Below, one piece after another: positions 731-43,400 of a stretch of 64,000 bases of DNA. The notes beneath the pieces are model-generated. The model ran no database searches, was not told the DNA's origin, and saw only the letters and a list, made by a program, of their open reading frames with translations. Position numbers and translations under genes: made by a program. The number at the start of each line of letters is the position of its first letter. The stretch's first letter is position 1. This DNA is from Vermamoeba vermiformis (lineage: Eukaryota): assembly GCA_045837725.1 (NCBI GenBank), contig JBEWZL010000113.1, forward strand, positions 1 to 64,000. Direction: 5' to 3'.

Positions 731-3700
731 TTAATGAAACATCCAACTGTAATTGATACTCAGCTGGTCTAATATCAGTGCTAATCCGCTCTGCTGATCC
801 GGAAGTTTGCCCCATGAATGAAGCACAACCAACTGTAGTTGGTGAGATTGTGCCAGAACCTCTGCTATCGCGTTGCAGCATGTGCCTAGCTCACCGTTTG
901 ACGGAGCAAGAATATTCCGCAAATGAAGGGTTGATAAGCGAGGGAGCATCGATTGCAGCGTCTTGATATACTTTTCTTTCAGTACGAGTTCATTAAACTT
1001 GCGAGTACTGTAGATCGGGAGCATCAAGTCTTGGATCGATTCATGCTGTTGCAGTGCCAATAAGAACTCATCTTCACCTTCAGTCGTGTTGTTTTCATTG
1101 TCAACTGGATACACGATGTGAAACTTTGTGAGCTGTTTGTTTCGAAGGAGATTGGTCAACGATGCATATGAAGTGAAATGACAATTGAACAGCACCACAG
1201 ATGTTATTGATGGACTCGATGCAATGTCACTCATCAGTTGTTCAATCAACGATGATGATTGGTCGTCGTTGTGAGTGCAGAACAAGTTCATCAGTTTGAT
1301 AGACTTGAGAACTGAACTCGATCCTAGTAGATAGCATCACGTTATTAGTATTCAGCCATCGTATTCAGTCTTACGTTACTTACGAATGATTTGTGAGGCA
1401 TTGTGAATTGTGTGCTTGAGTGCCTTGTTATCGATCAAATCAACGATCATTGTCTTGCACTCATTTGCATCACTTCGAATACTTGCATCATACATGCAAA
1501 TATTGTTTTGCATTCGATCGCGCTAAAAATAGAAAGTGTTACCGACCGGATCTACATCTGTTTGGATCGTTACCTTATTTTTCAAGAACTCCTCTAACTC
1601 CTGTTTTACATGTTGCTCCAGCTCGTAGTTTGCACCATCTTACGTATATAATTTTAGAATTGGAACGATATTCTTTTAAATTAACTAAACCCTGTACCTC
1701 TGAGAATTATGTTTTCGTCTTGTAATTGCTTGGGTGTTTCATGAAAAGGTAAGTCGTCTTCATACTTTGTAATGAAGAGTTGAGCTGTTTCATCGTTATC
1801 ACTCATTTTTCGACCACTATAATAAATCGCTTCTTCAACGAGTAATTGTTTCGTTATGTGTCGGATCCGCAAGTGGGCACTGTCTTCTTCGGGTCGGGCT
1901 TTAGATTCCTCGTATTCATCCAAACTATATCACATTAGTACTGCTAGCCTACATACAGTATCTTACTATTGCAATATTTGTTCTTCATGATCTTCGTCGG
2001 CAACATCGTTGTCACTGCCAAGTTTTTGTTCCGCACTAGAAATTTCGTTGGTAAATTTCACTATTGTAGTCGGCACAGCATACCTCTTATCGTTCATTTC
2101 GGCATTACATTCCTCATCGGACTCAAAGCTTTCGTATTCCTCAACTTCATCTAGCTGGGCAAATTTCACGCACTTTTTGAGACTATCTACAATAATGCTG
2201 TGCAAGGGGTCGTCATTGGCGTCTTCTTCTTGTTTGACATCGCTATTGCTCGCATTTTGTTCTTCCAAGTCAGTGATGGGCTCGTCAATCCAGTCACTGT
2301 CCACGCTTGATTCGTCCGAGTAGTGTTCGCTGTCAGAGTACATCACGATCGGATTCTCGTAATATAACTCTTCGTTATCTGGATAGAGATTATTTGGGCT
2401 GCAGTTTATCTTCCGCATCGCCTCTATGATGTGTTTACGTTCAACTACGAAAGGCTTACTAGAGTCATCGTCTACTGGTTTTAACTTCGCAGCTTTACCC
2501 AATGTCCGACCAATGAAACTGACTAGCATACGAAGAGCATATTCTAATTATATTATGATCAGTTTATTGAGTATTGTGGGGAAAAAACCGATAATTGAAA
2601 ATCACGTAAACTTTTTTCATCAAAAACTTACCAGTAGCATTGGGTGTAGCACAAACAATACCTCCTTTGCGCATCAGGCGATGAATCGAGTGCCGAACTT
2701 GAATGAAACAAATTAATATTAAGGATATTCGGACATTCAGGTCTTACTTGACAACCAATCAGGCATCATATCAAAGTCATCGTCAGTGGCGATGTCTGCT
2801 TGAAAGTAACTCGTCCAGGGATTGATCAGTGCGTTTAAATTGAAGTCGTAACCACCGTCGGCAATGTAGAACACTTCTGACACGTTGTTTTGCACTTCGT
2901 ATGCTGAATAAATAGCGCTCAAGTACGGATACTTCTCTTCTGCTCCCTGTTTTAAGAACAACAAATCACTCACGCGAAGCTTTTGAAGTGCACAAATCAT
3001 CACTGAAATGAGCGATGAAGACTGGTCGAGTGTTGCGGCGTATTTGAGCTGAGTGATCACTTCGTCAACAATGTCACCTGTTCGAACGATTGATCGCTCG
3101 TACTTGGCTTGCTGATATTGACAGGTGTCAACGTCATTCGTCAAACAAACTAGGAAAACTTACGTTGATGAGAATTGAATCATGACACCGAGGAGGTGGA
3201 CAATGGCCAATTACAATAGCACTCAGCACGTGAATGAACAGCTTGAGCGAGCGTTCTGAGGACGAAATTTCACTGAATCTAAGTTAGCAAAACCCAACTA
3301 ACTTTTTAAAGCGAGTCGACTTACTTAAATAGATTATCGCGAGTCTCATGTGAGATGTATCCATCATATTCGCTGTCAGTTGATTGGCTTGATTCATCAT
3401 CAACCTGCATTTCCTGGTCAACAGCGGTCTCTAATCCATCGACCTCACTTTCTTCTTGACTTCCGAATTCTTCTTGTTGAGATATCGCAGAATTTGATTC
3501 TGGGTTGAAATCATCTTCATATGATTGATCTTCTTCTTCGTCCCAACCAGCCTCAAATATTTCGCTATCACTATCGTTGTTTTTGCCAGCATCTTTGCAA
3601 GTTTGGTTGTCTGGCTTGTCCGCCAAAGCTAACGCAATTTCTTCGTCTTTTTCGTCGTACAGAGCAAGCTCTGACTGCTCTTTCAGACAGCTACATTTTG

Positions 3701-4512
3701 CACCACTGAACGCTTCGTTAAGTGGTTTGGAGTCACGCCAAATCTCGAATTGATGATACTTCATTTGAGTTTTCAATGCCAATTTCTTGTACGCCACTTT
3801 CGGAAAGAATCTTTGTGCGAGTAGAAGGGCGTCTTTGATTGGTGGAATATCTTCGTGATCTGTCAAAGCTGAAGTTAGTCGTGTAATAAACAAAATTGTT
3901 CGTTACTTACATTCGTAGAAATATTTAATGGGAAATTCGGCGAGGTACTCGTCTTCTGATACTAAAAATCGTTGGTCATTCAAACAACTGCCAGAGAGCG
4001 GATCTTGATCTTCGTTGAATTCCCACTCAAAATGGGCTTCATGAACAGGACCGTATCCTTGTGCAGATCTTAGTGCTACCATTAATTGAAGTTAGATTTG
4101 TCAAAACATTGCAAGCCGGTTGTTTCTACCTTCATCCAAAATAGTTTCGCTGATATCTACATCAAAGCGCTGTAGAGCGGCCAGATATATTTCGTACCAT
4201 ATCTTATTTGGTAACTTTTTGATGTGATTATTCCAGTGTTTGGAGGTTAACGAGAAGAGCACAAGTGGGAGAGGATCGACATCCCGAAAAATAATTTCCA
4301 AAATCTCTTCTGGTAATTTTTTAGGCAAATCTATAGCTTAAACAATATTAGCTTACCACAATAATATTTTAAAAATTTTTACAGTGCAGATATAAGATGA
4401 ATCAGATCTTGGTTGACACTGAAAGCCGTAAATTACCTTCAGGCTCAATACGAGCTTTTTTAATATTTCTTTTATCGTCCCAATCTTCTTCAGCCTTTCT
4501 TTTCTTCTCCAT
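731..4512 (-). CDS. Multi-exon F-box protein with acidic tracts, a histone H4-like fold and a C-terminal RNI-like LRR region
   Basis: ATG at 4512 (MEKKRKAEE..., NLS-like). F-box motif LPEEILEIIFRDVDPLPLVLFSLTSKHW. ORFs 3321-3893, 2737-3144, 1966-2529, 1681-1923 and 731-1291 are separated by GT-AG introns. The C-terminus has LRR-like Leu periodicity (SITSVVLFNCHF, RLSTLHLRN). It could be two genes. Confidence 0.6.
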
Positions 4513-4685
4513 TGTAAAACCAACAGCAGACAATCAAATATCTGAGATAGACGAATACAATACTAAACATTGCTAGTTACGGGGTTTGTTCTTACGGACT
4601 CCTTTCCTATTTTTTTCTGTGGTAATTAATTCACAATACCAATTATGTTGCGACTTTCATCGTTGATTAAATCTAATTGGTCAGT

Positions 4686-4733
4686 GCGATTTGTGACCAA
4701 CACGAGAATACTACGACACTGACTAAAATTCGC
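4686..4733 (+). repeat. Short duplicated remnant of the 3' end of the gene at 1-615
   Basis: 4686-4712 gcgatttgtgaccaacacgagaatact matches 547-573 gcgatctgtgaccaacacgagaatact at 26/27 nt; both are followed by taaaattcgc. Confidence 0.7.
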
Positions 4734-4804
4734 TAAGCGATGGCGAATAAAAACAAATTAACGAATTACTATCTACATTTATTTACAGTAGTTCAGTTGC
4801 GAGA

Positions 4805-7800
4805 TTACATATTGCGTTTTTGATTTTGGACAACTGACTCATAGCGTTCAACAAAATCCGCGTAGTATTGATATTGACCAGTAAAGAACATTGCGTTCAT
4901 AGGAGATGGCTTAACTTCTGTAATTTGAACGGTAGACTTTGTGCATTTAGCTTTTTTCGTTTGTCTCGGATCCAGGTTCGCGACATCTTCGTCATTTTTT
5001 CTCTTTCGCTCTTGCGAGTTTCCTAACCTTAGATTATTATTGTGTGTGACGGCTCCGGCTACATTCATATTCGATACAAGATTATCCTTGTAGAGCTTTA
5101 GGTCGGTTCTGGGAATGATCGGAAGTACACGGAAAACAGCGCTCAATTTCAACTGGTATTCCACGCTGTCGTAATTCCGAAGAACTTGCTGCAAGTTTGA
5201 GTTCTGTAAATGTAACTCCCCAATCGTCTTTTTGAACGTTTTAACGTCGAGAATCATATCGGGAACTTTCACCAGATCGAAGCCAATGTCTACTTTCATC
5301 TCACTATACGAACCGTTAGCAACACTATAGAAGCACATGTATGGCATTCTACTTACTGCCTCACGTAGCCGTATAAGTCCATCACTCTGTGACTCGGATT
5401 GCATTGGACTACTAGCGAAGGTCCGTTCACCAACCTGAAGGTCAAGGTCAATATGAGTTGAGGTAGAACGTTCATTCAACGTACTTTAAGCCTAATGTAA
5501 CAAGTTCCTCGTTCTTGTTGGTTGAGATTTTGTTAATCGAGAACATTTCTCGCAGACTGCAATAAAAATTAGAACGATGACAAGTATAGCAAAAGGGATT
5601 CATTCTTACTCGTTGATTTCCGATTCAGTGTACGAGTGGTATCGATAATTGGGATCGATTAAAGGCTTGGAAGCTGGTGCAGCTTGTTGCGCGTAAATTT
5701 GTTGAGCACTTTCGTCCAATCGCTTTGCAAGAACTGTTCGAAATTCCACATTGCTTTGATTCACTAAAACGATACATTAATGCCACTGTGCGACAGTATT
5801 GCACTATCGCGGGAACGTACCCCTTAGCGAGGTGTGCCATTGATTCACTGCTTCGGGCAATATGTGTATCGATTGTAAGTACTTCATCGAGGGCAGTAGT
5901 TTGCAAATGTCAGCGCCGTGAGATTTGACGCGCCATCCGAGCTTTAAAATACGTGGAGGAAAACCTAGCCGCGCTGAAGGTCCCAAAGCAAGTTGACCCT
6001 CGATCCACAACATTTTCATGTTTGGACCGCCAAGTACAATGTCTTCGTTGATCCGCACATTGTTCATTTCCAAATATAGTAAGTTAGGCAATAACTCGAA
6101 GTTCGTCTTTGACACGAAGTTGAATTCGCAGTCTAAGTATGGGTCATCCGGTGTGTATTGCCTTCGGGCCTTAGTTTTCCGCAACATGAGGAACTTCAGC
6201 GGGAAGTTTCCGGCTCGATCCGCGTTCAATATGCCAAGTTCGACTTTGAATTGTTTGTTTGGGGCTTGACTCCACGCCAGCGTTGTCAAAGTCATTTTTT
6301 CGACTCGCGGGAATGCTTCCAATAATATTGATATCCACACTGTATTTTGCTTTTGAAATTCTTTAACCAAAGCTGGCGCCAATTTCACCTATTGCCAAAT
6401 AAGGTCAGTTACTAAGATGGAAAGTATTTGAGAAACGAACCTTTTTTAGATTTGTAGCGTAAGATGAGATGGCCCAAAGTATTGGCAGATCGACCCTGCT
6501 TTCCAAGTGTAAAGTCTCCAAATGCGGCAGAGCAAAAGAAGTTTCGACGCCTAAGCCCGGGTTTCGGATCGTGATCTGATTCAGTGTTAAATTCTTAAGG
6601 TTCGGCAACTGTGATAATAGCAAGCCAATGTCTTGTATGACCACGTTAGTGAGGTTTAGTATTTCTAAGGAAGCCACTTGTTGCACTGGCAGCCCGAGAT
6701 ATTGATTAGGATGCATCGATCTCGCATTCACGATTTTTGGATTCGTTTTCCAGATGTCATCGCCAGTAGGTGCCTTGAATAAGTACCCTTCGTGGTAGTC
6801 CAATTTCATCTGCACCTTATTGCGTTCAAGTTCCCAGTGGCCCATCATGCCTTTGCCAATTGGATCTTCGAAAGAATTCAAGTACGGGCACGCAGAAGAC
6901 AATGTGTGCAAAAAATCTCGCGACATGATCACATTTGCGTTGGTTTCCAGCGTGCGGAGATTGACCGCCCTGGAAAATGTCAAAAAAGTGTCAACTTGTC
7001 AAATCGGGTCCGAAAATACGTACGCGAATAGTTCAGGTTTAGAGTCGACGGCAATAGCTCTGCTCGGATTGTAGATGAATCTTTGCAATGTTTCGGCACC
7101 AGGATTATGCAAGAAAAACAAGAATAATTCTCGTTGGATGGATTCACAGTAAGCTCGTTGACTGAGGGTTATCTCCACACTACGTAGATTCGCGGGTATG
7201 ATTATCGCTAGAAATCCTTCTTGTGGATCGCAAGCTTCGATTGCCTTGAAGTGCCTGTGTTTCAAGCAATTCGTCAGTAATTACATTTTGATCCTAATAA
7301 GGAAAATCTTGCGTCAACATTTCGCTCGTGCTGACAACACGAACAAGACATTTGTAGTGTTTTGCAACACGGTGGCTGCCAGTTCAATCAAATAATTGGC
7401 AACCCAAAACTTGCGCAAATTTCGAAAATTGATCCACGGATCGAGGCTTGCCAACACGAAGCAAACCCATCCACAGTGGATCGTAGCGTATCAATAAGAT
7501 ACTATGTTAAGAACGTAAGATTTTCACGCTTTTTTTAGCTTACTCCAAGCATGGCAAATGAGTCAAAGCCTCCAACCAGGAATGATTCATTGAACAGTTC
7601 TCGACCTCTAATGACCGTAGTGGACTTGCTTTTCCTTCTGTGACATTGAGCATGCGGGCATCGTCAGTAAGAGAAGTAACTTTGCGTAAATTGGCTAGTC
7701 GAAGCCTATCGAGATGTGGCAGTCTATTAATAGCTCATTTAGTCGGGGAATGCTTGTGGATTGATACAATTATACATAATAATGAATGTTTCTAATACTT

Positions 7801-25561: not shown

Positions 25562-28527
25562 ATGAATCAACTCGTTCTACTCGTGCTGCTGTTTGCCATT
25601 GGGAGCAACCTGGAGATTAATAGTGTCTGTAAGTACTATTGTAAATATGCAATATTGCAATAATATACCGATGGCAACGGTTAATATTTTGCCGAAGACG
25701 TTGACCAAATTATTAATTTAAATTGCTTTACAAACAAAACTCAAACTTGATTTCGCTTATTGCTTCGTGCTCTATAATTACAAACTACAATTAATTTATT
25801 GAATGCTTTGTCAATAATTTTGGTGACACTTTCCATCCAGATTCGCTGCCGACCTATTATTCAGATACTGGACTGACGGCAAACTTGGTACTGGATGTTT
25901 CCCTAGATCGGTTTCAAGTTCGCGTCGTTCCTACAAAGAACGATAGTACTAAATTCGCTGTATGCTTGGCCTACGGAACAACGCTTAATGTCGTATACGT
26001 CTCCAAATATGAGTACTCTACTCTCAACAAAAGCTTTACGTTTGTTTACAACGTTTCTTTGGGCGGAGTTAATACCTTTCAAGGGTGGTCTTTCCCCGAT
26101 CGAGGATCAGAAGATTGTGCCTCGATAGCTCTCATAACTGAGGTGAATATTATGAAAAGTACGCTGCCATTTAGCACGATCTAACATCGATTATTTAGCA
26201 AAATGAGCTTATCATAGGTCCCAATTTTTATTCTCTGAATCCACTGGGAGACGGACCTGAGCTGCTGGTGGGTCCTACGAGAGTAAACTCATCGACCGAA
26301 GAAATGATGATAGTCATGGCCAATAGCGTAAGCATATCACAAGCACAACCCATTGTTACTAATACTCTGTGGTAGTCAATGATTCGAAACCTCGATTATT
26401 CACTTTTGCAAAGTGCGGGAGCAGGTTTGAAGGATAGTTCCCTTAGTGTCTGCAATTATGGTAAGTTGTTGCATTTGTTTAAAGCTATGCTAATTCCTTA
26501 TCCGTTAGGGCCGAGTTCATTTTTTGTCGCGCTCGGAATTACTGCCGGAGGTTTGCCTCAGCAGGCACAAGTTTTCAACCAAAACTTGGGCAAACCTTGG
26601 ATTATAGGGAACACAACTTATCCCGCAAGAACTCCGTCGGTCGCTGGGTGGCCAGCTAGTGGCAAATTCATGATCTGCTATGACAATGGCGGAAACGTAA
26701 CCACGGCAAAGGTAAACAATTTTAAGTTATTTTCTTTAAAATACGAAAATTTTAACTAATATTGTTATCCAGATTTTCTGCCGTGCATCAGCGAGTGACA
26801 AGGAGACTATTATTGATGACCAGGGTGCTAGCTCAGTATTCTCGAGAGTTACCGTTAGCCCGGTGCTCGAGACACACGCAATCGTCAGTGCTTTAGCGAC
26901 GGATACTAGCCCTCATTTTAGGCTTTATGCTGTCGATAGCAACACTGGCACATTAGTCCCTGACTCAACGTGGGTCGGTGATTCAGCTGATGCAGTCACT
27001 CATGACTCGCACTCGGGCGTTATTGCCGTGGGTGTCCTATATCAGACCCAGTTAACTATTCGCATTCTACAGTTCAATGTACGTACGAGAATACTGTTCT
27101 TTTAAGCTAGCGTACTAACAAAAGCGACTTAAAGCCTCCCAGCACACCAGTGAGCTCTACAGGTCCTCCAAGCACATCTGGCGGGCCACCTCCTGCCGAT
27201 TCACCTTTAAGCACACCAAGTGACCCGTCTTCACAAGGAGTCCCACAAAGCGTACAAATCGGCGTCGGAGTTTCAGTGTCGGTGGCAGGCGCCGCTGCGG
27301 GATTGTTGCTGTTACTGCTATTGTTGAAGAAGAGACGTGATAAAAAGAAGAAACAGGGCGACCAAGTGCCAATGACTAATGACGACGAAAGGACTTACGC
27401 TGGCATTCCTACAGGAAAGTATTCAAACTTCAACACGACGAATGAAAGTGTCACTACGGCTACAGAAGAGGACGGTATTGCTGTCCCGACGTCGATTAAA
27501 CCGTCGGAGATTGACCAACGAATGCACATTCCGTACAAGAGTCTCGTGTTCGTCAAAGAGATTGGTGCGGGAAGCTACGGCAAAGTCTATCTCGGGTACG
27601 TCGTTCAATGTCACGTGCCTTACGTGTTCTAACTGTAGAGTGTTTCAGTGAATGGAGAGGAGCGAAGGTTGCAATCAAAGTGAACAACACAGTGACTGAT
27701 GTCGATGGATTCCTCGCTGAAGCTAAACTCACACTGTAAGTAGAGTTAAACGTGGTGCTATTTTGGTTAATCTAATTGTTACCAGTGGCATCCCTCCTCA
27801 TCCGAACCTTGTGCAAACCTTTGGTGTGTCACTTGATGGACCCAATCCTTGCATTGTTCTCGAGTATTGTGGTGGTGGATCGCTTGATAATTTGTTCGGA
27901 TCTGAGAACTTATCGAATGAGAAGAGGCTTGACTACGCACTGAAGATTGGCTACGGCTTGCTTCACCTCCATTCACGCAATATCGTGCATCGTGACTTGG
28001 CAGCACGCAACATCTTGCTGACAAATGATGGTCAACCAAAGATCTCAGACTTTGGTATGTCTCGTATTGTTCAAGAAGAAGCTGCCAAAGGACGAACGAA
28101 AAACATGGTCGGTCCGCTCAGATGGATGTCTCCTGAAAACTTAAAGGACCGAACGTATAGTTTGAAGTCTGACGTTTGGAGCTTTGGCATTACCTGTAAG
28201 CCGTTAATTCCAGATCAGAGTCGGTACCGAAGATCTTACCTTTTGATTCAATAGTGTACGAAATTGTTGCCGGAAAAGAACCGCACGTTGACGAAGATCA
28301 GCTAGAGATAGCGCTGAAGATTAGAAATGAAGGTGCGACGCCCAAGATCCCCGAAGACTGCGATCCAGTTCTTCGCGAGTGCATGGAAATGTGTTGGAAG
28401 TTCAACCCGGAAGAGCGACCTGTAAGTACTTGAATGCAATTATATATTCCTTAAGATTAAGTATTAATATGTTGACTAGACAATGGAAGAGGTTTGTGCG
28501 TTCCTTCGATCTAAATCCTCCGCTTGA
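25562..28527 (+). CDS. Single-pass receptor tyrosine-kinase-like protein 1
   Basis: Signal peptide, beta-rich ectodomain, Pro/Ser stalk, TM (IGVGVSVSVAGAAAGLLLLLLLL) then KKRRDKKKK. Kinase motifs IGAGSYGKVY, VAIK, HRDLAARN, DFGMSR, GPLRWMSPE, SDVWSFG. Confidence 0.88.
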
Positions 28528-32235: not shown

Positions 32236-35210
32236 ATGGATCGACTTCGTTATGTCGTTCTCTTTCTGGTTTGCTTGGCTTTGATAATTTCCGGAGAAAT
32301 ACGTAAGTGTTTAGTGCAGTGAAATCGGCAAAATTAGGAGATTGCCAAGCATGTTTAAATTTATATAAAAATGGATTAATTTACTTTTGTCATAGAGGAC
32401 TCCCCAAGCCCTTACGTACTGCTAAGAACTGCGCCGAAGATTATTTTGGATGCACAATTTACGGTCATGAACAAAATGGTCGTTAAAGTGGTTCCTACTG
32501 GAGCGTTCAAAAACCAAGACTTTATCATTTGTCTAGGATATGAATATCTTACATCTTCTTCTGCAAGTTTAATTGGCCTAAAGAAGTATTTCTATTCCAG
32601 CCTCAACGGATCGATGTCGCTACCGCAGGATATTCCCGTTACAATTAACTCCTTCAGAGATTTCGCTTTTCTCGATAAAGGCGATGATTCGTGTTCCACT
32701 GGCATTCTCGAAGAAGTAAGTAACTAATAAAACTTTCAAGTATTAAAAGTTGCGGGCAGATCAGCTCCAATTGGAAAGTTGGCTCGGCAGACACATTTTC
32801 CAACGTAGCCATGGACAGAAATCCAATACGAGCCGCTATCACGAAGCCAGATTACAGCGGAACGGCAATATTATCATTCTTTTGCAATACTGTAAGTTCG
32901 CATGCTATTTGTTTTATAGAATTTTTTTGACTTACGCGGACAGACTGCTTGTTTCGACAACACCTACAACCCCATATCTCAAGCCTCTGGGAGCTCTATA
33001 TACAGCTCTATCAACGTAGCTAACATAGGTAAATGATTGCGGTACTGAGATTGGACAAAGTCATTAACATGCCATTTCACAGGTCAATCGTCGTACTTGG
33101 CAACGATGTCGTTTAATCCTTCAGCGGGTCTCAAACAAGGTCAGGTTAGTATGTTCAGCAATGGTGTTTGGAGTGTTTCTTCTACGAGTAATACCGCCCG
33201 TGAAATTTCCGTTACTTCCTGGGACGACAATGATTTCATGTTCTGCTACGACAACGGAATCCTTCAGCTAATAGATTCACCGACAGTACGTCCGTTGAAT
33301 ATACACTTGATTTGTATTAACTTTGAGTAAGATTTACTGCCGATCCAAAAATTCTGGAAGCGACATCATTATCGACGAAGGAAGGCCTAACGCTGCTAAC
33401 GCCACGTTCAGCCAAGTTAACGTTAGTCCTGTTAACCCCAACTATGCCTTCGTTTCTGCATTGGCGACCAATGGCGTTGGCTCCCACTACAGACTCTACT
33501 CTGTTACCAAAGGTTCAGATGCCGCTCTTGACCCGCGAACGCTTTTGATAGGCACCTCCGCAGTGCGAGTTGCGTCGCATTCCAAAGGCAATATTATTGC
33601 TGTGGCTGTCTGTTACGCGGCTGCTATTGACCTCACTCTCTATGGGTTTGATGTACGTTACGTCTTAACTATTGTTGACGTTCTAACGCTTCTTTTAGAT
33701 GAGCGTTTTCAACCCACCTGTAGCACCTCCTGTTGCCACTCCAATCACTCCACCGCAGGCAGCACCGGTCACCACCGCCCCACAAGCAACTCCGAACACA
33801 AATTCTCCAGTTGCACCGCCTGGTTCTTCCCCCATAGGCACTCCTACAGCCACAGTAGTCGACCCCCCAGTTGCTGACTCGGGTTTGACTCAAGGAGCAA
33901 AGATCGGTGTTGGTGTTGCGGTCAGTGCAGTTGGTGCAGGTGCAGGACTGTTCGTTCTTCTCTTCTTGCTCAAGAAGAAGCGTGACAAGAAGAAGCAAAA
34001 GAGTGACGAAACACCAATGGATCCAGTCGATGGCTCAAAAGAACCAGGTTCTGACAACACTTATGGAAACTTGCCAGGAATGGACAATGGCAAGTACTCG
34101 AACATCAACCTGACTGGCAACAGCAAATATGGCAACGTCTCAGTCGCTGGTAGTGATGATGGTATTGCAGTACCAACATCGATTCAGCCATCAGAGATCG
34201 ACAAGAGAATGCACATTCCTTACAAGAGTCTCGTGTTTGTCAAAGAGATTGGTGCGGGAAGCTACGGCAAAGTCTATCTCGGGTAAGTCGTTCAACGTCA
34301 CGTGCCTTACGTATTCTAACGATCGAATATTTCAGTGAATGGAGAGGAGCGAAGGTTGCAATCAAAGTGAACAACACAGTGACTGATGTCGATGGATTCC
34401 TCGCTGAAGCTAAATTGACTCTGTAAGTTCATAAGCAACGGTTCCTATCAATTAATAGCTCACCCGCTTAATTACAGTGGTATCACACCTCATCCGAACC
34501 TTGTCCAAACCTTTGGTGTGTCACTTGACGGACCCAATCCTTGCATTGTTCTCGAGTATTGCGGCGGCGGCTCGCTCGATCAGCTATTCAGTGGCGATAA
34601 AGGACTGACCAACGAGAAGAGACTTGAGTACGCACTGAAGATTGGTTACGGCTTGCTTCATCTCCACTCACGTAGTATCGTGCATCGTGACTTGGCAGCA
34701 CGCAACATCTTGTTGACAAACGATGGTCAACCAAAGATTTCAGACTTTGGTATGTCTCGAATTGTTCAAGAAGAAGCCGCTAAAGGACGAACCAAAACGA
34801 ACTTTGGACCAATCAGATGGATGGCACCTGAGTGCTTGAAAGACAAGTCGTACAGTTTGAAGTCCGACGTTTGGAGCTTTGGTATTATTTGTACGTGATT
34901 ATCGTTGTCCCGCTACAAACCCGAACTAACATTGTTCTAGTGTACGAGCTTGTTGCAGGCAAAGAGCCTCATGAAGACGCAGATCAACTTGAGATTGCGT
35001 TGAAGATTCGAGACAAAGGAGAGACACCAAAGATTCCTGAAGACTGCGATCCAGTTCTTCGCGAGTGCATGGAAATGTGTTGGAAGTTCAGCCCTAATGA
35101 TCGTCCCGTAAGTATTATATACAAAAATTATATTACATACTAACTAACACCAACGATAGTCAATGGAAGATGTTTGCGCTTTCCTTCGATCCAAGTCGCC
35201 GGATTCTTAA
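32236..35210 (+). CDS. Single-pass receptor tyrosine-kinase-like protein 3
   Basis: Same exon layout. Signal MDRLRYVVLFLVCLALIISG; TM and kinase almost identical to copy 2. Confidence 0.88.
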
Positions 35211-35411: not shown

Positions 35412-36818
<1,407 letters not shown>

Positions 36819-36947
36819 TGAACAGTTTAACACTTGTTGATGGAAGTTTTATCTATTGTAGCCTTGCTGCTCTGGAAGTAAAATTAAAGTCTTTTGAAGT
36901 TTCAGTTCCCTTTCTTTCAGCTCTGCGCCAACACAAAAGCCACGAAG

Positions 36948-39900
36948 ATGTTGCTTCGTGTACTTTGTAAATCATCCAAGATAATCGCTCGCCCTAGGGG
37001 CTCGAGCTTGACACGCCTGGCAAGAGGCGTTCCATCTCTCGAGAATCCGACTGCATCTCAACGTATTCAAGGCAAGTAATTATCGCGTATTGAAAATTTT
37101 TATTAATATATTACCGTGTTAGTGCCTACCCTTTGGTAAGTTTCTGGGTAATTGGAATGAACTCACTCGCATCGGGATTCTGACGTGACCTGATCCAGAT
37201 CATCTGACTGACTTTAGGGGTCTAAACTCGCCCAAAAATAGTGGTGTTTTCTCGCCCTACAATAGAGGTATTTTTACTACTCGCGCTCCTACATCAGGTT
37301 CGACTTTGCCGAATCAAGAATCAACTTCTTACCAGAGTAAGAGAGGTGCGTCTCTAAGAGAATGAAATTATAATAATACTAAGCGGCGAATTAATTATTG
37401 TTAGTTGCTGAATGGACTCGTGCTGACGTCGCTCAGTGGGCAAGCGATTACAATTTGCTTTGTAACAACGATGGCCGGTCTAAATTACATAATTATGATA
37501 TTACTGGCGAAGTATTAAGCACCTTTAACGAGAGTGCAATCAAGAGCAGCGGTTTAAGCACTGAGGAGGCTAGGCAAATATTTGCAGTAGCTGCTCGATA
37601 CATGCTAGCAACTAACGAGTGCAGCACCGCAATTATCATGAATAATGTGCAAGCGACTTTGGCAAGAATCAAGAACGTTCTTGAAAATGGCAAAAATCTC
37701 AAGTATCAGCAGGAGAACATTTCACCGCTTGCTGTGGATTGCTTACCGTTAGCAAACGATGGTCTTTATTGGGACACGGATTATTTTGAGGATATACGAG
37801 GCACGACGTTTTATGAAGAGTTCAAGGAACAAATTCAAGGGTCTGTTGCTTCCGTGCAGAATGCCAAGTTGCACCACTTGATTCAAAGTAAGTTCACAAC
37901 ACAAATAGTGCTATTTTTGACAGTTTTGAAGTGAGTGGCACTGGAAAAAGTCATGCAATGAAGCAATACATCCGGCAGCATGGTGGTGTATTCATTAGTT
38001 TCATACGTGAAACACATGGACAATTTCTGCGTGAAACTGAAGAAGCCATATCAAAAGTTATTAATGATACTCCCTACCTTCAATCAAGACAAGTAGGAAC
38101 ATTCAAGCAAGAGCAAAAATTCACAGAATTTGCAAAGATGGCAGTGGAGTCAATTCCATTATCATTTGTTGAATATGCAAAGTATTTTTACAAACATGGT
38201 AAGTTGGTGTAAGTTGGATAATGACTGAAATAACACCTTTACAGCCCAAGAGATAGGAATGAATGATGAGGACCAAAAAGAAGCATTTCTTCGTGCATCT
38301 TTGGATGAAGGTCAACCAGCAATCTTTGCATTGCACAAAAGGAATTTGAAACTGTTGCAAGAAAACCCAACTCAATACAACAGTCTGCGCTCTGATATCA
38401 TCACCTATGCTAAACAGCAGAAGATGACCTTTGCCTTTGATGAAATTCACCAAATGTCGGAGACCTTTGTAGGTCAATTTCTACACAGTGCAACCATAGT
38501 TAAAGGTGGAGTGCAAGTGTTTCAATCGACTGACAAAAAAGAGGTTACTGAAACTGAATGGCAAACGTTTCTTGTAAGTGTCTTAGCTCTCACATCTATG
38601 ATCTAATTTATTCTTCAGCATGAGAGATTGCGAAGAGAACGCCAAAAAAAATATCAGCCTGCAATGCCTGGAGATTTTCAACGACCCACATCACTGTTGT
38701 ACATCTTAGTGTTGGTAATGGAGGACTTTGCAAAACAAACAATTCCAGTAAGTCTGTAGACTTGCAGAATCTCAGCACTAACAATTTGTATAGCAAATGA
38801 CTGCATCAACAGTATATTCTTCAACCTTGTATAGCTTTAAAGGCGAGCTATATTCACGTGACAGACTGCCCATTATTCCAATTATAGTGCCGCAGATTGA
38901 TAATACTGTAGCAAGATTTCTCAATATTATCAAGCATGCATTTGGTCAAAAAGCAGAAGAATATCTACAAAAGAACCACCAACAAACTTTGCAAGATCTT
39001 TCATCTCACTCAAAGTTCCTTTTTGATATTTTTAGAGTTGAGCTCACTTGAACTCTCAACAAATACTAATATTAGTAGGAAAATCTATCATCCAAAACTA
39101 AGATTGAAGAATTGCTAGATGCCATGATGATCAGAGGGCAATTTACTGCCAAAAATTTCAGTACAAAATATTTAGAGGCTGCATTACAGCGTGATGAGTT
39201 GAAAAAGGTTTGCATTTAATTGTAACTTTATTGTATTAATTGGTCCTCAGGTGATGGCAAACACTGTTCTTCAAGTGAACCTTGGAGGTCATTTAGCAGA
39301 GCTTAGCCCTATAGAGGTAGAAGGGCTTGTCAGTTCTGGTGTTCTTCGGTTGCCAGAAGGATACAAATCAGGTTCAAGGTTTGGTGTAATTGCATCACAT
39401 TACGATGTTTATATGCACCAAGCTATGCATCAATATCCTTTACAAGAACTCATTCAAGTAAGAAGCAAAGGTACTGTATTTGTTCTTGACTAACAAAAGT
39501 TGCAGCTTGTACCTGCTCTTATTTGTGAAAATGCTCCAAACGACACTGGGCAGCTTGGCAAATATGCATGCTCCCTCCTGTTGAAACAGCATGCTCAAAC
39601 ATTTGCACCAGCTTCACTTTTATCGCTAGTGACAGAATTGAACTTAGCAAGTACTGCCAAAGATTTTGTTTTGTCACCAGCACTACATTGCAAGAGATGG
39701 CAAGATATCCCTGGAACTTGGACCATGTTTGAAGACTACCATGGGTACAAAGATGTTCTACTTCGACCTAGCCCAGCTGCAGGACCAGATGCAATATGTG
39801 TGCTCCTTAAATTTGGCACACAAGAGCCTGGTGGCTTTTTGCTACTTCAATCCAAGAACCATGCCCAATCACTGAACGAGAATGACTTACCTGCTGCTCT

Positions 39901-40338
39901 GAAGTCTGTCGATCCTAATCAAATGTTTAGAGGTGCAAAAAACCAACGACCACAGTTTGTTGCAGCTGTTAAAAAATTGCCTGCTACATTTGCATGGTTG
40001 CGAGTAAGTTAAATGAGAACTTAGCTCATGAACTTTCAATGCTAATCATAATGTAGGTTATTTATGCCAAAGCTTTTACAAAACAGGCATGGGAGGATAT
40101 TTGCAACTACAATACCACAGAACATGGCAAGAAGTTTCCAATCATCCTTCTGACTGCCCACAACCTTCCTACACTTCTTCAAACAACGGACATATTTGCA
40201 CCTATAAATTCACGAGGTACCCCAGACAGGCAAACAGCAGAAGGCCTTGACTCACCTGCTGGTATTCCGCCCAAAAGCCTTACAAAAAGAGAAATTGCTT
40301 CACTAACCCGAACCTATGGGCTAAAGCTTAAATTCTAA
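36948..40338 (+). CDS. Crinkler/RHS-type effector-like protein: basic presequence, SAM-like domain, P-loop NTPase, PD-(D/E)xK nuclease
   Basis: SAM-like EWTRADVAQWA...DITGEVLSTF...IKSSGLS. Walker A-like VSGTGKS, Walker B MTFAFDEIHQ. REase-like RPSPAAGPDAICVL...FLLLQSKNH. About ten exons joined in frame. Confidence 0.7.
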
Positions 40339-40435: not shown

Positions 40436-43400
40436 TTATCCAACGATGTTGCTGAAGGCGCTGCAGGTTTTTTGGCTCCAGGCCTCGGTGGAAGTTTCGG
40501 TCCGTTCAGCTGACCAACCGACGGATTTCTCAACATTGGAGGCTGTTTGTGTTGGCCCGGAGAGCCCGGAGAGCCCGGAGTTCGGTGACGCACCACCGCT
40601 CACCGCCATTGGTCGCTTTTTAGCTGGCGCAGCCAATCCCTTTGCGTTAGGACCGGGAGCCACGGGCTTTTCCAACGCGTGTCGCGTGCCAGCTGCAGCA
40701 GGGCGAGCAAGAACAGGAGCTATAAATAGACATTAATAATCACGTGTGATAAGAATAAGCGGCTAGATTACACGTACCACCATTCTCGCGAGGTGATGAA
40801 GGTGTCGCAAGGTTCACGTCGTGTCTGTGCGACTCTGGCGCTGAAATTCGTTTGTTGTAAGGAGGGGCTGATTGCGGGCCACTGCTCGGTCCGTCACGTG
40901 GTGAAGACGCCTTCGATGAGTCCGGTGAACCATTAGTGCTGTTGTTCGGTGAATTCTTCGTGCCACTGAGGTTCAGTTGTTGAGGCTTGATAGCGTCGCT
41001 CAACCGAGGTGCAGGGGTAGGACTTGAATTAGGCCCCGCGACAATTTGATTGGCATTGAGCTTAGGATCACTCGGACGTCTCGGGGCAGGAGTCGGTGAC
41101 GTTGGTGTCGAGCCATTGGGACTCGTAATCTGATTGTCGTTCAACTCGCCGCTACTTGGCTGCTTTCGCAACGTGCCACTATTAACAGCGTTGCCTTTAG
41201 AAGGGTCACTGGGCCTTCGCGGAGCTGGCACGGGCGCTGCATTCGCGTTAGGACTATTGGCTTGATTGGCGTTCATTTCCGCAACGCTCGGCTGTCTTCT
41301 CAAAGCACCACCAGACGTGCCTCGTGGCGTTGTTGGCGGCGTCGGTCTCGTCATTGGCGTTGGTGAGCCTTCGTCATGAGTGTTCGCGCTTGTTACTTGA
41401 CTGGACACATCAGCAACGCTCGGCTGTTTCCGCAAAGTGCCACCAGAAGTGCCGCGAGGTGTCGTCGGTGGCGTGGGTCTCGTCATGGGCGAGGACTCAC
41501 GGTCGTCCTTGTTCACTTGACTCGTGTTCAGCGCTGGGTCACTAGGCTTCTTCGTGACTTGGCCCGTGTTCAATGAGGGGTCACTGGCCTTCTTAGTGAT
41601 CTGGCCCTCGTTCAGAGCAGGATCGCTCGGTTTCTTCGTGATACTCGGCGAGGTCTGTTCTTCCGTAGGGTGATTTGGCGACAAGGGCGGTGATTTAATG
41701 TTAGGTTTTGAGGCATTTCTAACTATTGTCGGCGGGGCAGTAACGCTATTAGCGGCATTTCTAGGGGACTCTTGGGTCGGGCTGGCGCTATTATTGGTGT
41801 TGTTGTTATTGCTACTATTGTACAAAGCGGGGTTTGGCGCTAATGAAGGGCTCGGCATGCGTCTATCTGGAACGCCTGTTGAGCGGCTATTTGGACTTGT
41901 CGGCCTTAATGTTTCATATGGTCGTTTTATTCCTACAATTTTGAATCAATATTGGAGCATTATTAAGCTGAAAACATTTTCCGAAGAAATCTTTCGGAGA
42001 AAATTAAGATTTTGGATTAGAGACCATGCCGCAATAACTTACCTGCTTTCATATTCTCGCGTTGCACGAATTTATGTAGATCAGCTGGATTAACCATAAC
42101 AGAAGCTCTCAGCGACAATTTTTCAAATAGAAGTCCGGCTTCGTTGTCTTCTTCTTTTACCGGCGGTTTTAACGTGACACTCATAGCGCCACTTGTAGTA
42201 TTTGTTTGGTTCTTGCCTTCAGCGGATGACTCTGAGACTGATTCCTCACTAGACCAAAAAAGTTAGACAGATCCGTATCAATTAATATCCTTAAAATATT
42301 TTCGGGCTGTCGCTCGTAAAAAAGTGTTATTGTTATCGCTTATGGTTATTTTTATATAAAGAATCGACTTACTTGATTGACGGAGGTCGATCTGATTTAT
42401 CTTTGTCTTTCTTGTCCTTATCCTTGTCTTTATGAGTTCCTGATGTCCTCTTCTTAGAGCCCTTATGACTACCTGATTTTCTTGAATTCTTCGGCGAGGA
42501 ATTATTGGAATTGGAATTATTGGCTGGAACATTTGGCGACGCGGGTCCTGGAGAATTCAGCGGTGTACCTGATTCGCTAGCTGAATCAGATTTCAAAAGT
42601 TCAATAGGTATTCTACTATCTTCTCTTTGTATATTATCCATCCTTTCATCTGCAACGAAATATTAGATCCAAGATCAAGATGCGAATCCGCAGAAAAATT
42701 TGCTCGAACGGTATGCTAATGACGATAATATGATTATACGTACTCATCTTATTATTATAATCTGCAATTGTTTCCACTAACGAGACAATCCAACTGGCCT
42801 TTTCTTCGAGACTTTTTGATTGAAAATACAACATTTTTCGTTGCGGGCTAATGCACAGCTGGAAAAAATGTCCGTTGACTGTAATTGCATTATATTAAGG
42901 ATAATAATGCATAAAATAATATTAAGATAATTTTTAAAATTAATTGGCAGGTGTCAAGATCGTTTTGAGAATGGTCGAAAAAACGGATCTGGTCCTTCAA
43001 CCAATTAACGTAAACCAATATCGTTAAATAAGGATACGATCATCGCTCTCGGGTATATCGAGCACTGATACTGCATGAAGACTAGCGACAATTTTGACTT
43101 TCAATTTTTTGGATCCAAGTTTGAACGCACTCGCGAATGAATTGCCTTGCTGTGCAAACACCAAGATATCGTTGAACAAAAAGAATGTGATCTGTAATAG
43201 TGCTTGGTAAGTACATGAACTATATACCATTGCGAGTTCTTACCTCTTTTTTACGGTGTTTTTCTATTCGTGTAAAACTGGCCTCTCGAATAAATTTTCG
43301 GTGCGGAGCCACCAAATTCTACGATAAAGTAAGCATAATTAGCCTTATATTTCGCATATATATGCACATATATGATAATATTATCGTATTAACATACGTC

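Follow-up and report, generated by a model that had tools for sequence, protein, structure and literature searches.

The window analysed here is the whole 64,000-nucleotide stretch from Vermamoeba vermiformis (assembly GCA_045837725.1, contig JBEWZL010000113.1, positions 1 to 64,000 of the forward strand), and the gene under study lies on its + strand. The core of this gene consists of nine open segments between 37405 and 40338, which eight GT–AG introns of 42–53 nucleotides (nt) join into one 854-codon frame that ends with a TAA stop codon at 40336–40338. With two candidate exons upstream, the first of which opens with an ATG at 36948, the full model comes to 937 codons; the secure part is 854 of about 937 residues. 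The predicted protein has, in order, a SAM-like region, strings that resemble the Walker A and Walker B motifs of P-loop nucleoside triphosphatases (NTPases) and a C-terminal PD...QSK signature. On this sequence evidence we tentatively read it as an NTPase coupled to an Mrr-like (PD-QxK) nuclease. The parts of the model, in window coordinates, are as follows.

36948–37075, + strand: candidate exon 1, with the ATG and a basic, acid-free, amphipathic, presequence-like leader, within the open reading frame 36888–37079
37218–37336, + strand: candidate exon 2, a Ser/Thr/Pro/Asn-rich linker without Met, obtained from enumeration of models
37405–37887, + strand: exon 3, with a SAM-like helical region at about 37407–37613, followed by a linker of helical character and the strand that precedes the P-loop
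37932–38198, + strand: exon 4, which opens with the Walker-A-like SGTGKS (37934–37951)
38245–38573, + strand: exon 5, with the Walker-B-like FAFDE (38430–38444); both flanking introns are spliced out in X5 contigs
38619–38747, 38794–39036 and 39079–39207, + strand: exons 6–8, with the remaining part of the putative NTPase module and a region of helical character
39251–39457, + strand: exon 9, a possible winged-helix-like linker, judging from its sequence pattern
39506–40003, + strand: exon 10, the nuclease-like core of PD-QxK (Mrr) type, with GPD at 39782–39790 and LLLQSK at 39839–39856
40057–40338, + strand: exon 11, with the last strand or strands of the C-terminal domain, a Ser/Thr/Pro-rich tail and TAA

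Gene model and transcripts

Support for the splicing pattern comes from a public run, X5, which carries a different organism label and whose kind is a guess on record. Eleven of its contigs align with the gene, two of them at least 99% alike and nine at 95–99%; the relative that they represent is about 96–97% identical. Four introns are spliced out exactly in these contigs (38199–38244, 38574–38618, 38748–38793 and 39458–39505), and a fifth joint appears as a 53-nt skip at 40004–40056 that the aligner set 3 nt to the right; the other three of the eight (39037–39078, 39208–39250 and the one preceding the P-loop exon) are absent from the X5 joints listed. Since intron-free contigs derive from spliced RNA, transcription and splicing of the gene take place in a close relative. 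It is a real multi-exon eukaryotic gene: the codon score is best in the predicted frame for all nine core exons, and the frame is intact both in the window and in the X5 relative. Outside 36954–37334, X5 depth across the gene is merely 0.2–5.8, and no reads aligned from three RNA runs under the same species label (X19–X21), which provide no test.

Two introns that preserve the frame compete upstream of the P-loop exon. One (37888–37931) pairs a strong donor, GTAAGT, with a weak acceptor, AAG, and gives ...LIQMSGTGKS; the other (37868–37923) pairs a weak donor, GTTGCA, with a strong acceptor, CAG, and gives ...NANFEVSGTGKS. Splicing from the strong GTAAGT donor to the first AG past it, at 37923, would cause a frameshift that ends at a stop.

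Motifs, relatives and predicted domains

An earlier note on this DNA had described the gene as a SAM–NTPase–PD-(D/E)xK nuclease, and the strings that it named are all located in the 937-codon model: SGTGKS at residues 245–250, FAFDE at 395–399, GPD at 771–773 and LLLQSK at 790–795. With motif definitions that were written after the sequence had been seen, none of 20,000 shuffles of the protein had the Walker-A-like, Walker-B-like and PD...QSK motifs together in this order; taken singly, they turned up in 2.1%, 14.8% and 2.5% of shuffles, respectively. The catalytic signature PD...(D/E/Q)xK is present once in the protein, in strand-like contexts, and is conserved among relatives.

These relatives are few. 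When 1.84 billion representative proteins were searched with exon 10 by phmmer, five matches were returned, four of them true relatives, all unnamed exon-sized fragments of open reading frames: P0001 at 95% identity, P0002 and P0003 at 46%, and P0005 at 49% over 59 residues. The fifth, P0004, a bacterial repeat protein of 2,560 residues, was discarded as a low-complexity artefact. In exon 10 and its four relatives, P94, D95, Q115, S116 and K117 (exon 10 numbering) are invariant in all five aligned sequences. The PD and QSK residues remain unchanged down to 39–46% identity amid otherwise variable sequence, and the neighbouring hydrophobic strands are also kept. W[LIV]RVS closes all four fragments; it results from reading on into a GTAAGT donor, and the shared end point means that the intron position is conserved among the relatives. 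A cluster mate, P0007, spans the equivalents of exons 9 and 10, and its N-terminal part is 36–39% identical to exon 9.

Other searches returned little. A word-index protein search found no match to exon 10, and for exons 3 and 5 the sole match was a relative at 94–96% identity (P0009 at 96% for exon 3, P0008 at 94% for exon 5). Scans of metagenome, viral and prokaryote genome contigs confirmed no relative, and tblastn found no paralog within the 64-kb window. The gene is a fast-evolving and lineage-restricted orphan, with hardly any counterpart among sequenced organisms in these searches.

Between the window and X5, 29 differences are listed, 18 non-synonymous and 11 synonymous, which corresponds to an omega of roughly 0.5. 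Such a value is as expected for a gene engaged in conflict, and we count it in favour of the NTPase–nuclease reading. Two further observations concern these differences. Over 37407–40338 they are strand-asymmetric, with 11 A>G changes versus a single T>C (binomial p 0.016, base composition allowed for); a C precedes 8 of these 11 A>G sites, and the candidate sources are CpG decay in one lineage or a change at the RNA level. In addition, the relative's contig has a 9-nt in-frame insertion at window position 38867 (exon 7), which adds three residues.

The SAM-like assignment concerns exon 3. In an Atlas search, the three best named clusters for this exon carry SAM_1 or SAM_2, with scores of 0.78–0.80 that we treat as a lead only. 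The SAM profiles of Pfam (PF00536 and PF07647) match neither exon 3, nor its first 75 residues, nor P0009. An AlphaFold2 model of the exon, built from two sequences, places five helices in residues 5–69 at low confidence (mean pLDDT 39.8), and a Foldseek search with it found no match, with a model too poor for this to count. The SAM-like region of the earlier note is retained as a weak lead from the cluster ranking, in which SAM clusters come first (0.80), and from the low-confidence five-helix pattern, but it lacks a Pfam match.

The C-terminal domain is compared here with the Mrr catalytic domain, of which PD-QXK is the named signature (PMC11037411). The residues around QSK and the helix that follows run parallel, by eye and with no score attached, to ...YVQAKRW...LQAFYGAL of EcoKMrr.

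Other results weigh against an NTPase and a nuclease, or add nothing to the motifs. The Walker A string is non-canonical, with no [AG]x4GK[ST] pattern: GTGKS comes after LHHLIQ, and the residue that should be Gly or Ala is Q, or E if the alternative intron is used. TFAFDE fits hhhDE rather than the strict hhhhDE, and hhhDE is frequent by chance, at the shuffle rate given above. Walker A and Walker B stand 150 residues apart, which is long for AAA+ or STAND modules. Remote searches were made exon by exon, with the NTPase module split over at least four exons. Pfam, NCBIfam and PADLOC, with Mrr_cat, SAM_1/2 and the AAA families among their models, were run on each exon and on P0002, P0003, P0005, P0007 and P0009 and gave only a sub-threshold AAA_33 P-loop match to the stop-to-stop open reading frame of exon 4 (E 0.24, 12.1 bits versus a cut-off of 27), which we count as a weak lead for the NTPase. 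With Pfam taken up to E 10, neither exon 10 nor P0002, P0003 or P0007 had any match, including to Mrr_cat (PF04471). When the C-terminal profile was aligned by hhalign, the probability was 0.7% against EcoKMrr and 2.3% against a nine-sequence Mrr alignment (E. coli plus 8 of 123 matching plasmid records). Sequence searches of the Protein Data Bank (PDB) were blank for exons 3, 4, 5 and 7, alignment A1 and P0007. The AlphaFold2 model of exon 10 (five sequences) reached a mean pLDDT of 35.0, compared with 39.8 for exon 3; a Foldseek search of the PDB with the exon 10 model, which is too poor to count, had no match at E <= 0.001. At pLDDT 35–40 the fold searches are void, not negative. A Shedu nuclease row at E 5.8, found by Foldseek on a low-confidence model, was given no weight. 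The high share of non-synonymous differences could equally reflect weak constraint on a non-enzymatic protein. The earlier note is largely right about the sequence, and its interpretation is a reasonable conjecture: the motif order is compatible with an NTPase followed by a PD-(D/E)xK nuclease, and PD and QSK are retained in all four relatives, but no profile matches.

Candidate leader and neighbouring genes

The ATG at 36948 is the first in the open reading frame 36888–37079 and opens the Ser-, Leu- and Arg-rich peptide MLLRVLCKSSKIIARPRGSSLTRLARG..., with seven Lys or Arg and no Asp or Glu in its first 27 residues. The helical hydrophobic moment of residues 1–15 is 0.68, at the 99.9th percentile within the protein. 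The basic, acid-free, amphipathic N-terminal helix that characterizes a mitochondrial presequence is present in this candidate leader. Equally basic and acid-free stretches account for 9 of the 507 open, ATG-started 30-mers in the six frames of the window, and the composition by itself is only mildly unusual.

Because exon 3 has no in-frame Met before core residue 65, an upstream start is needed if the SAM-like region is translated. None of the ATGs between 36949 and 37404 yields an open model into the acceptor at 37404; two upstream ATGs, at 36715 and 36728, do give open models, but with introns of several hundred nucleotides. From candidate exon 1, the strongest donor (37076) joins acceptor 37404 out of frame. 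The in-frame route through the best splice signals takes in an extra exon, 37218–37336 (candidate exon 2), with introns of 142 and 68 nt; the alternative is a direct join, open only to weak donors (at 37063, for example, the intron would measure 342 nt). In the predicted frame, the codon score of exon 1 is 0.01–0.03, the best of its frames and barely positive, and that of exon 2 is 0.21, with negative scores in the other two frames; three of four control segments were negative in the first of three frames. X5 depth is zero over 36954–37334, which, given the low depth elsewhere, neither confirms nor refutes exons 1 and 2. The Arg/Ser/Leu-rich start without acidic residues that the earlier note had described is there; the join that it assumed between exon 1 and the SAM-like exon is a candidate only, since the best donor is out of frame and 36954–37334 has no X5 transcript.

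A small-GTPase (Rab-like) gene lies head-to-head with the studied gene, on the minus strand at 36586–36953. Its ATG is at 36818, its first exon ends at 36781 and the two start codons are 129 nt apart. Its transcript is well covered in X5 (bin depths 66 and 37) and extends into the bin 36827–36953.

The wider window resembles a compact eukaryotic genome, with a G+C content of 35–50%; searches of it for tRNAs and with Rfam gave no matches. Neighbouring open frames encode kinase, PCI, GNAT, glycosyltransferase and LRR-like domains. Two + strand frames, 27727–28254 and 34419–34898, have near-identical matches to a Tyr/Ser-Thr kinase profile (E 4e-42 and 3e-43) and are probably tandem paralogs of TKL type. 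On the minus strand, 40740–41945 is a 401-codon open frame rich in Ser, Pro and Thr, with repeated ...TRPTPPTTPRGTSGG... units and no Pfam match; it contains a 42-nt tandem repeat at 41515–41614, and the local G+C fraction is 0.50 versus 0.35–0.45 elsewhere. A row of open frames also occupies 731–6998 on the minus strand, of which 731–1336 and 6405–6998 have weak, sub-threshold LRR matches.

Interpretation and comparison with known systems

We explain the sequence as a nuclear gene, rich in introns, of a microbial eukaryote, and hypothesize the following protein layout. A candidate leader that is basic and amphipathic would come first, then a candidate linker that is disordered, then a helical, SAM-like domain through which the protein may self-associate. 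The P-loop-type NTPase module after it would have a degenerate Walker A, with hhhDE as its Walker-B-like motif, and would lead into a helical or winged-helix-like region and, at the C-terminal end, a nuclease-like domain of PD-QxK (Mrr) type. Domain assignments, catalytic activity and regulation are all matters that we infer. Under this scheme, nucleotide binding or hydrolysis together with SAM-driven oligomerization would gate a nuclease that cuts nucleic acid, and the protein might serve as a conflict or surveillance factor, by analogy with NTPase-coupled effectors of the restriction fold.

Several other explanations were considered. It is possible, if doubtful, that the gene is an orphan of some other function, such as a lineage-specific structural or regulatory protein, in which the Walker-like and PD-QxK-like strings would be remnants or coincidence. 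Blank family and profile tests, fold models too poor to use, a non-canonical Walker A, a majority of non-synonymous differences from the relative (18 of 29) and only four relatives among 1.84 billion representatives are consistent with such a protein. Coincidence is harder to reconcile with three motifs whose order was matched in 0 of 20,000 shuffles, with PD and QSK that stay invariant at 39–46% identity amid varying surroundings, and with the placement of the motifs in the expected strand-like hydrophobic contexts. Far less probable still is a domesticated or decaying transposon gene. A transposon origin has been reported for NTPase and restriction endonuclease (REase) modules, which are linked to transposable elements in prokaryotes (Zhang et al. 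2016, as recounted in the relevant part of the review PMC5289972), and the fast protein evolution would suit it. Against this, the gene is present as a single copy in the window, has at least eight spliceosomal introns with mutually matching signals, as in a resident nuclear gene, is flanked by ordinary host genes and has an intact frame in both window and relative.

The two remaining readings, organelle targeting and Crinkler/RHS (CR) membership, overlap with the NTPase–nuclease reading. Import into mitochondria, or another organelle or endosymbiont, by way of the exon 1 leader, with action on organellar DNA, is rather unlikely. The strongly amphipathic first 15 residues, the seven basic and no acidic residues among 27, the failure of any ATG in 36949–37404 to start an open model in which the SAM-like region is retained, and codon scores for exons 1 and 2 that are best in the predicted frame all argue for it. 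The candidate exon 1/2 junctions, however, lie at zero X5 depth (36954–37334), the introns needed (142 and 68 nt) compare with 42–53 nt elsewhere, the ATG is just 129 nt from the divergent small-GTPase ATG, and 9 of 507 random open frames are as basic. True CR membership by descent, with SAM as an alternative header on the classic toxin module of NTPase, helix–turn–helix (HTH) and REase, seems unlikely. Module order and module sizes agree with it, but the 937-residue model contains neither LxLFLAK nor HVLVxxP when searched with regular expressions, exons 1–3 have no Pfam match of any kind, a Crinkler header included, phmmer of exon 10 met no annotated full-length eukaryotic protein and the 64-kb window holds no paralog. 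CR genes usually form expanded families.

We return to an NTPase coupled to an Mrr-like nuclease as the best, if tentative, explanation. If it is correct, a single eukaryotic protein would contain a SAM head for oligomerization, a switch of NTPase type and a nuclease of Mrr type, a logic already known from prokaryotic type IV restriction and Crinkler-type effectors. Its family would be one that standard annotation misses because of its divergence, and the protein might be aimed at an organelle. It would also provide a data point on the uptake and rebuilding of restriction-fold effectors in protists. The most extended version, a family, particular to one small protist lineage, of SAM-scaffolded, NTP-gated Mrr-type nucleases that a presequence sends to mitochondria or an endosymbiont, is improbable; it would amount to a eukaryotic, organelle-directed, restriction-like surveillance or cell-death enzyme without annotated relative. 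Should the NTPase–nuclease reading fail, the gene would be one more fast-evolving orphan.

Among the closest known systems is the Mrr catalytic domain, in that a Pro-Asp pair heads a hydrophobic strand and, about 20 residues on, a strand ends in Q-x-K and is followed by a helix. The putative nuclease would also lie in the same polypeptide as an NTPase-like module, an arrangement described for prokaryotic fusions of Mrr catalytic domain and NTPase (PMC11037411). It differs in having no Pfam match and hhalign probabilities of only 0.7–2.3%, and in being eukaryotic, intron-split and C-terminal to the NTPase, after a SAM-like region and a possible presequence.

The comparison with CR effectors was also drawn in the earlier note. 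As recounted in the review PMC5289972, Zhang et al. 2016 report that no architecture is more common at the Crinkler C terminus than NTPase + HTH + REase, that the headers are variable, with alpha-helical forms among them, and that free-living eukaryotes also have CR proteins. Measured against that account, the studied protein has its modules in the same order and is of comparable size overall, an N-terminal 'header' of alpha-helical type would stand in for the secretion signal, and a host of free-living type would fit the reported range. It differs in the absence of the Ubl header motif (LxLFLAK or HVLVxxP), in the lack of a sequence relative detected among annotated eukaryotic proteins (phmmer, exon 10) and in the lack of a paralog cluster in the 64-kb window.

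A third parallel is one of logic and not of sequence. STAND and AAA+ immune NTPases with nuclease effectors (bacterial Avs and NLR-like proteins), as well as SAMD9 and SAMD9L, NTPase effectors of animals that are headed by a SAM domain, combine an oligomerization or adaptor part, an NTPase switch and an effector that targets nucleic acid. SAMD9 is much longer than the studied protein, which has no visible sensor repeats (TPR, LRR or WD) and would carry its effector at the C terminus. By analogy, the studied protein may follow the same modular plan, with a SAM-like head, an NTPase-like switch and a nuclease-like effector.

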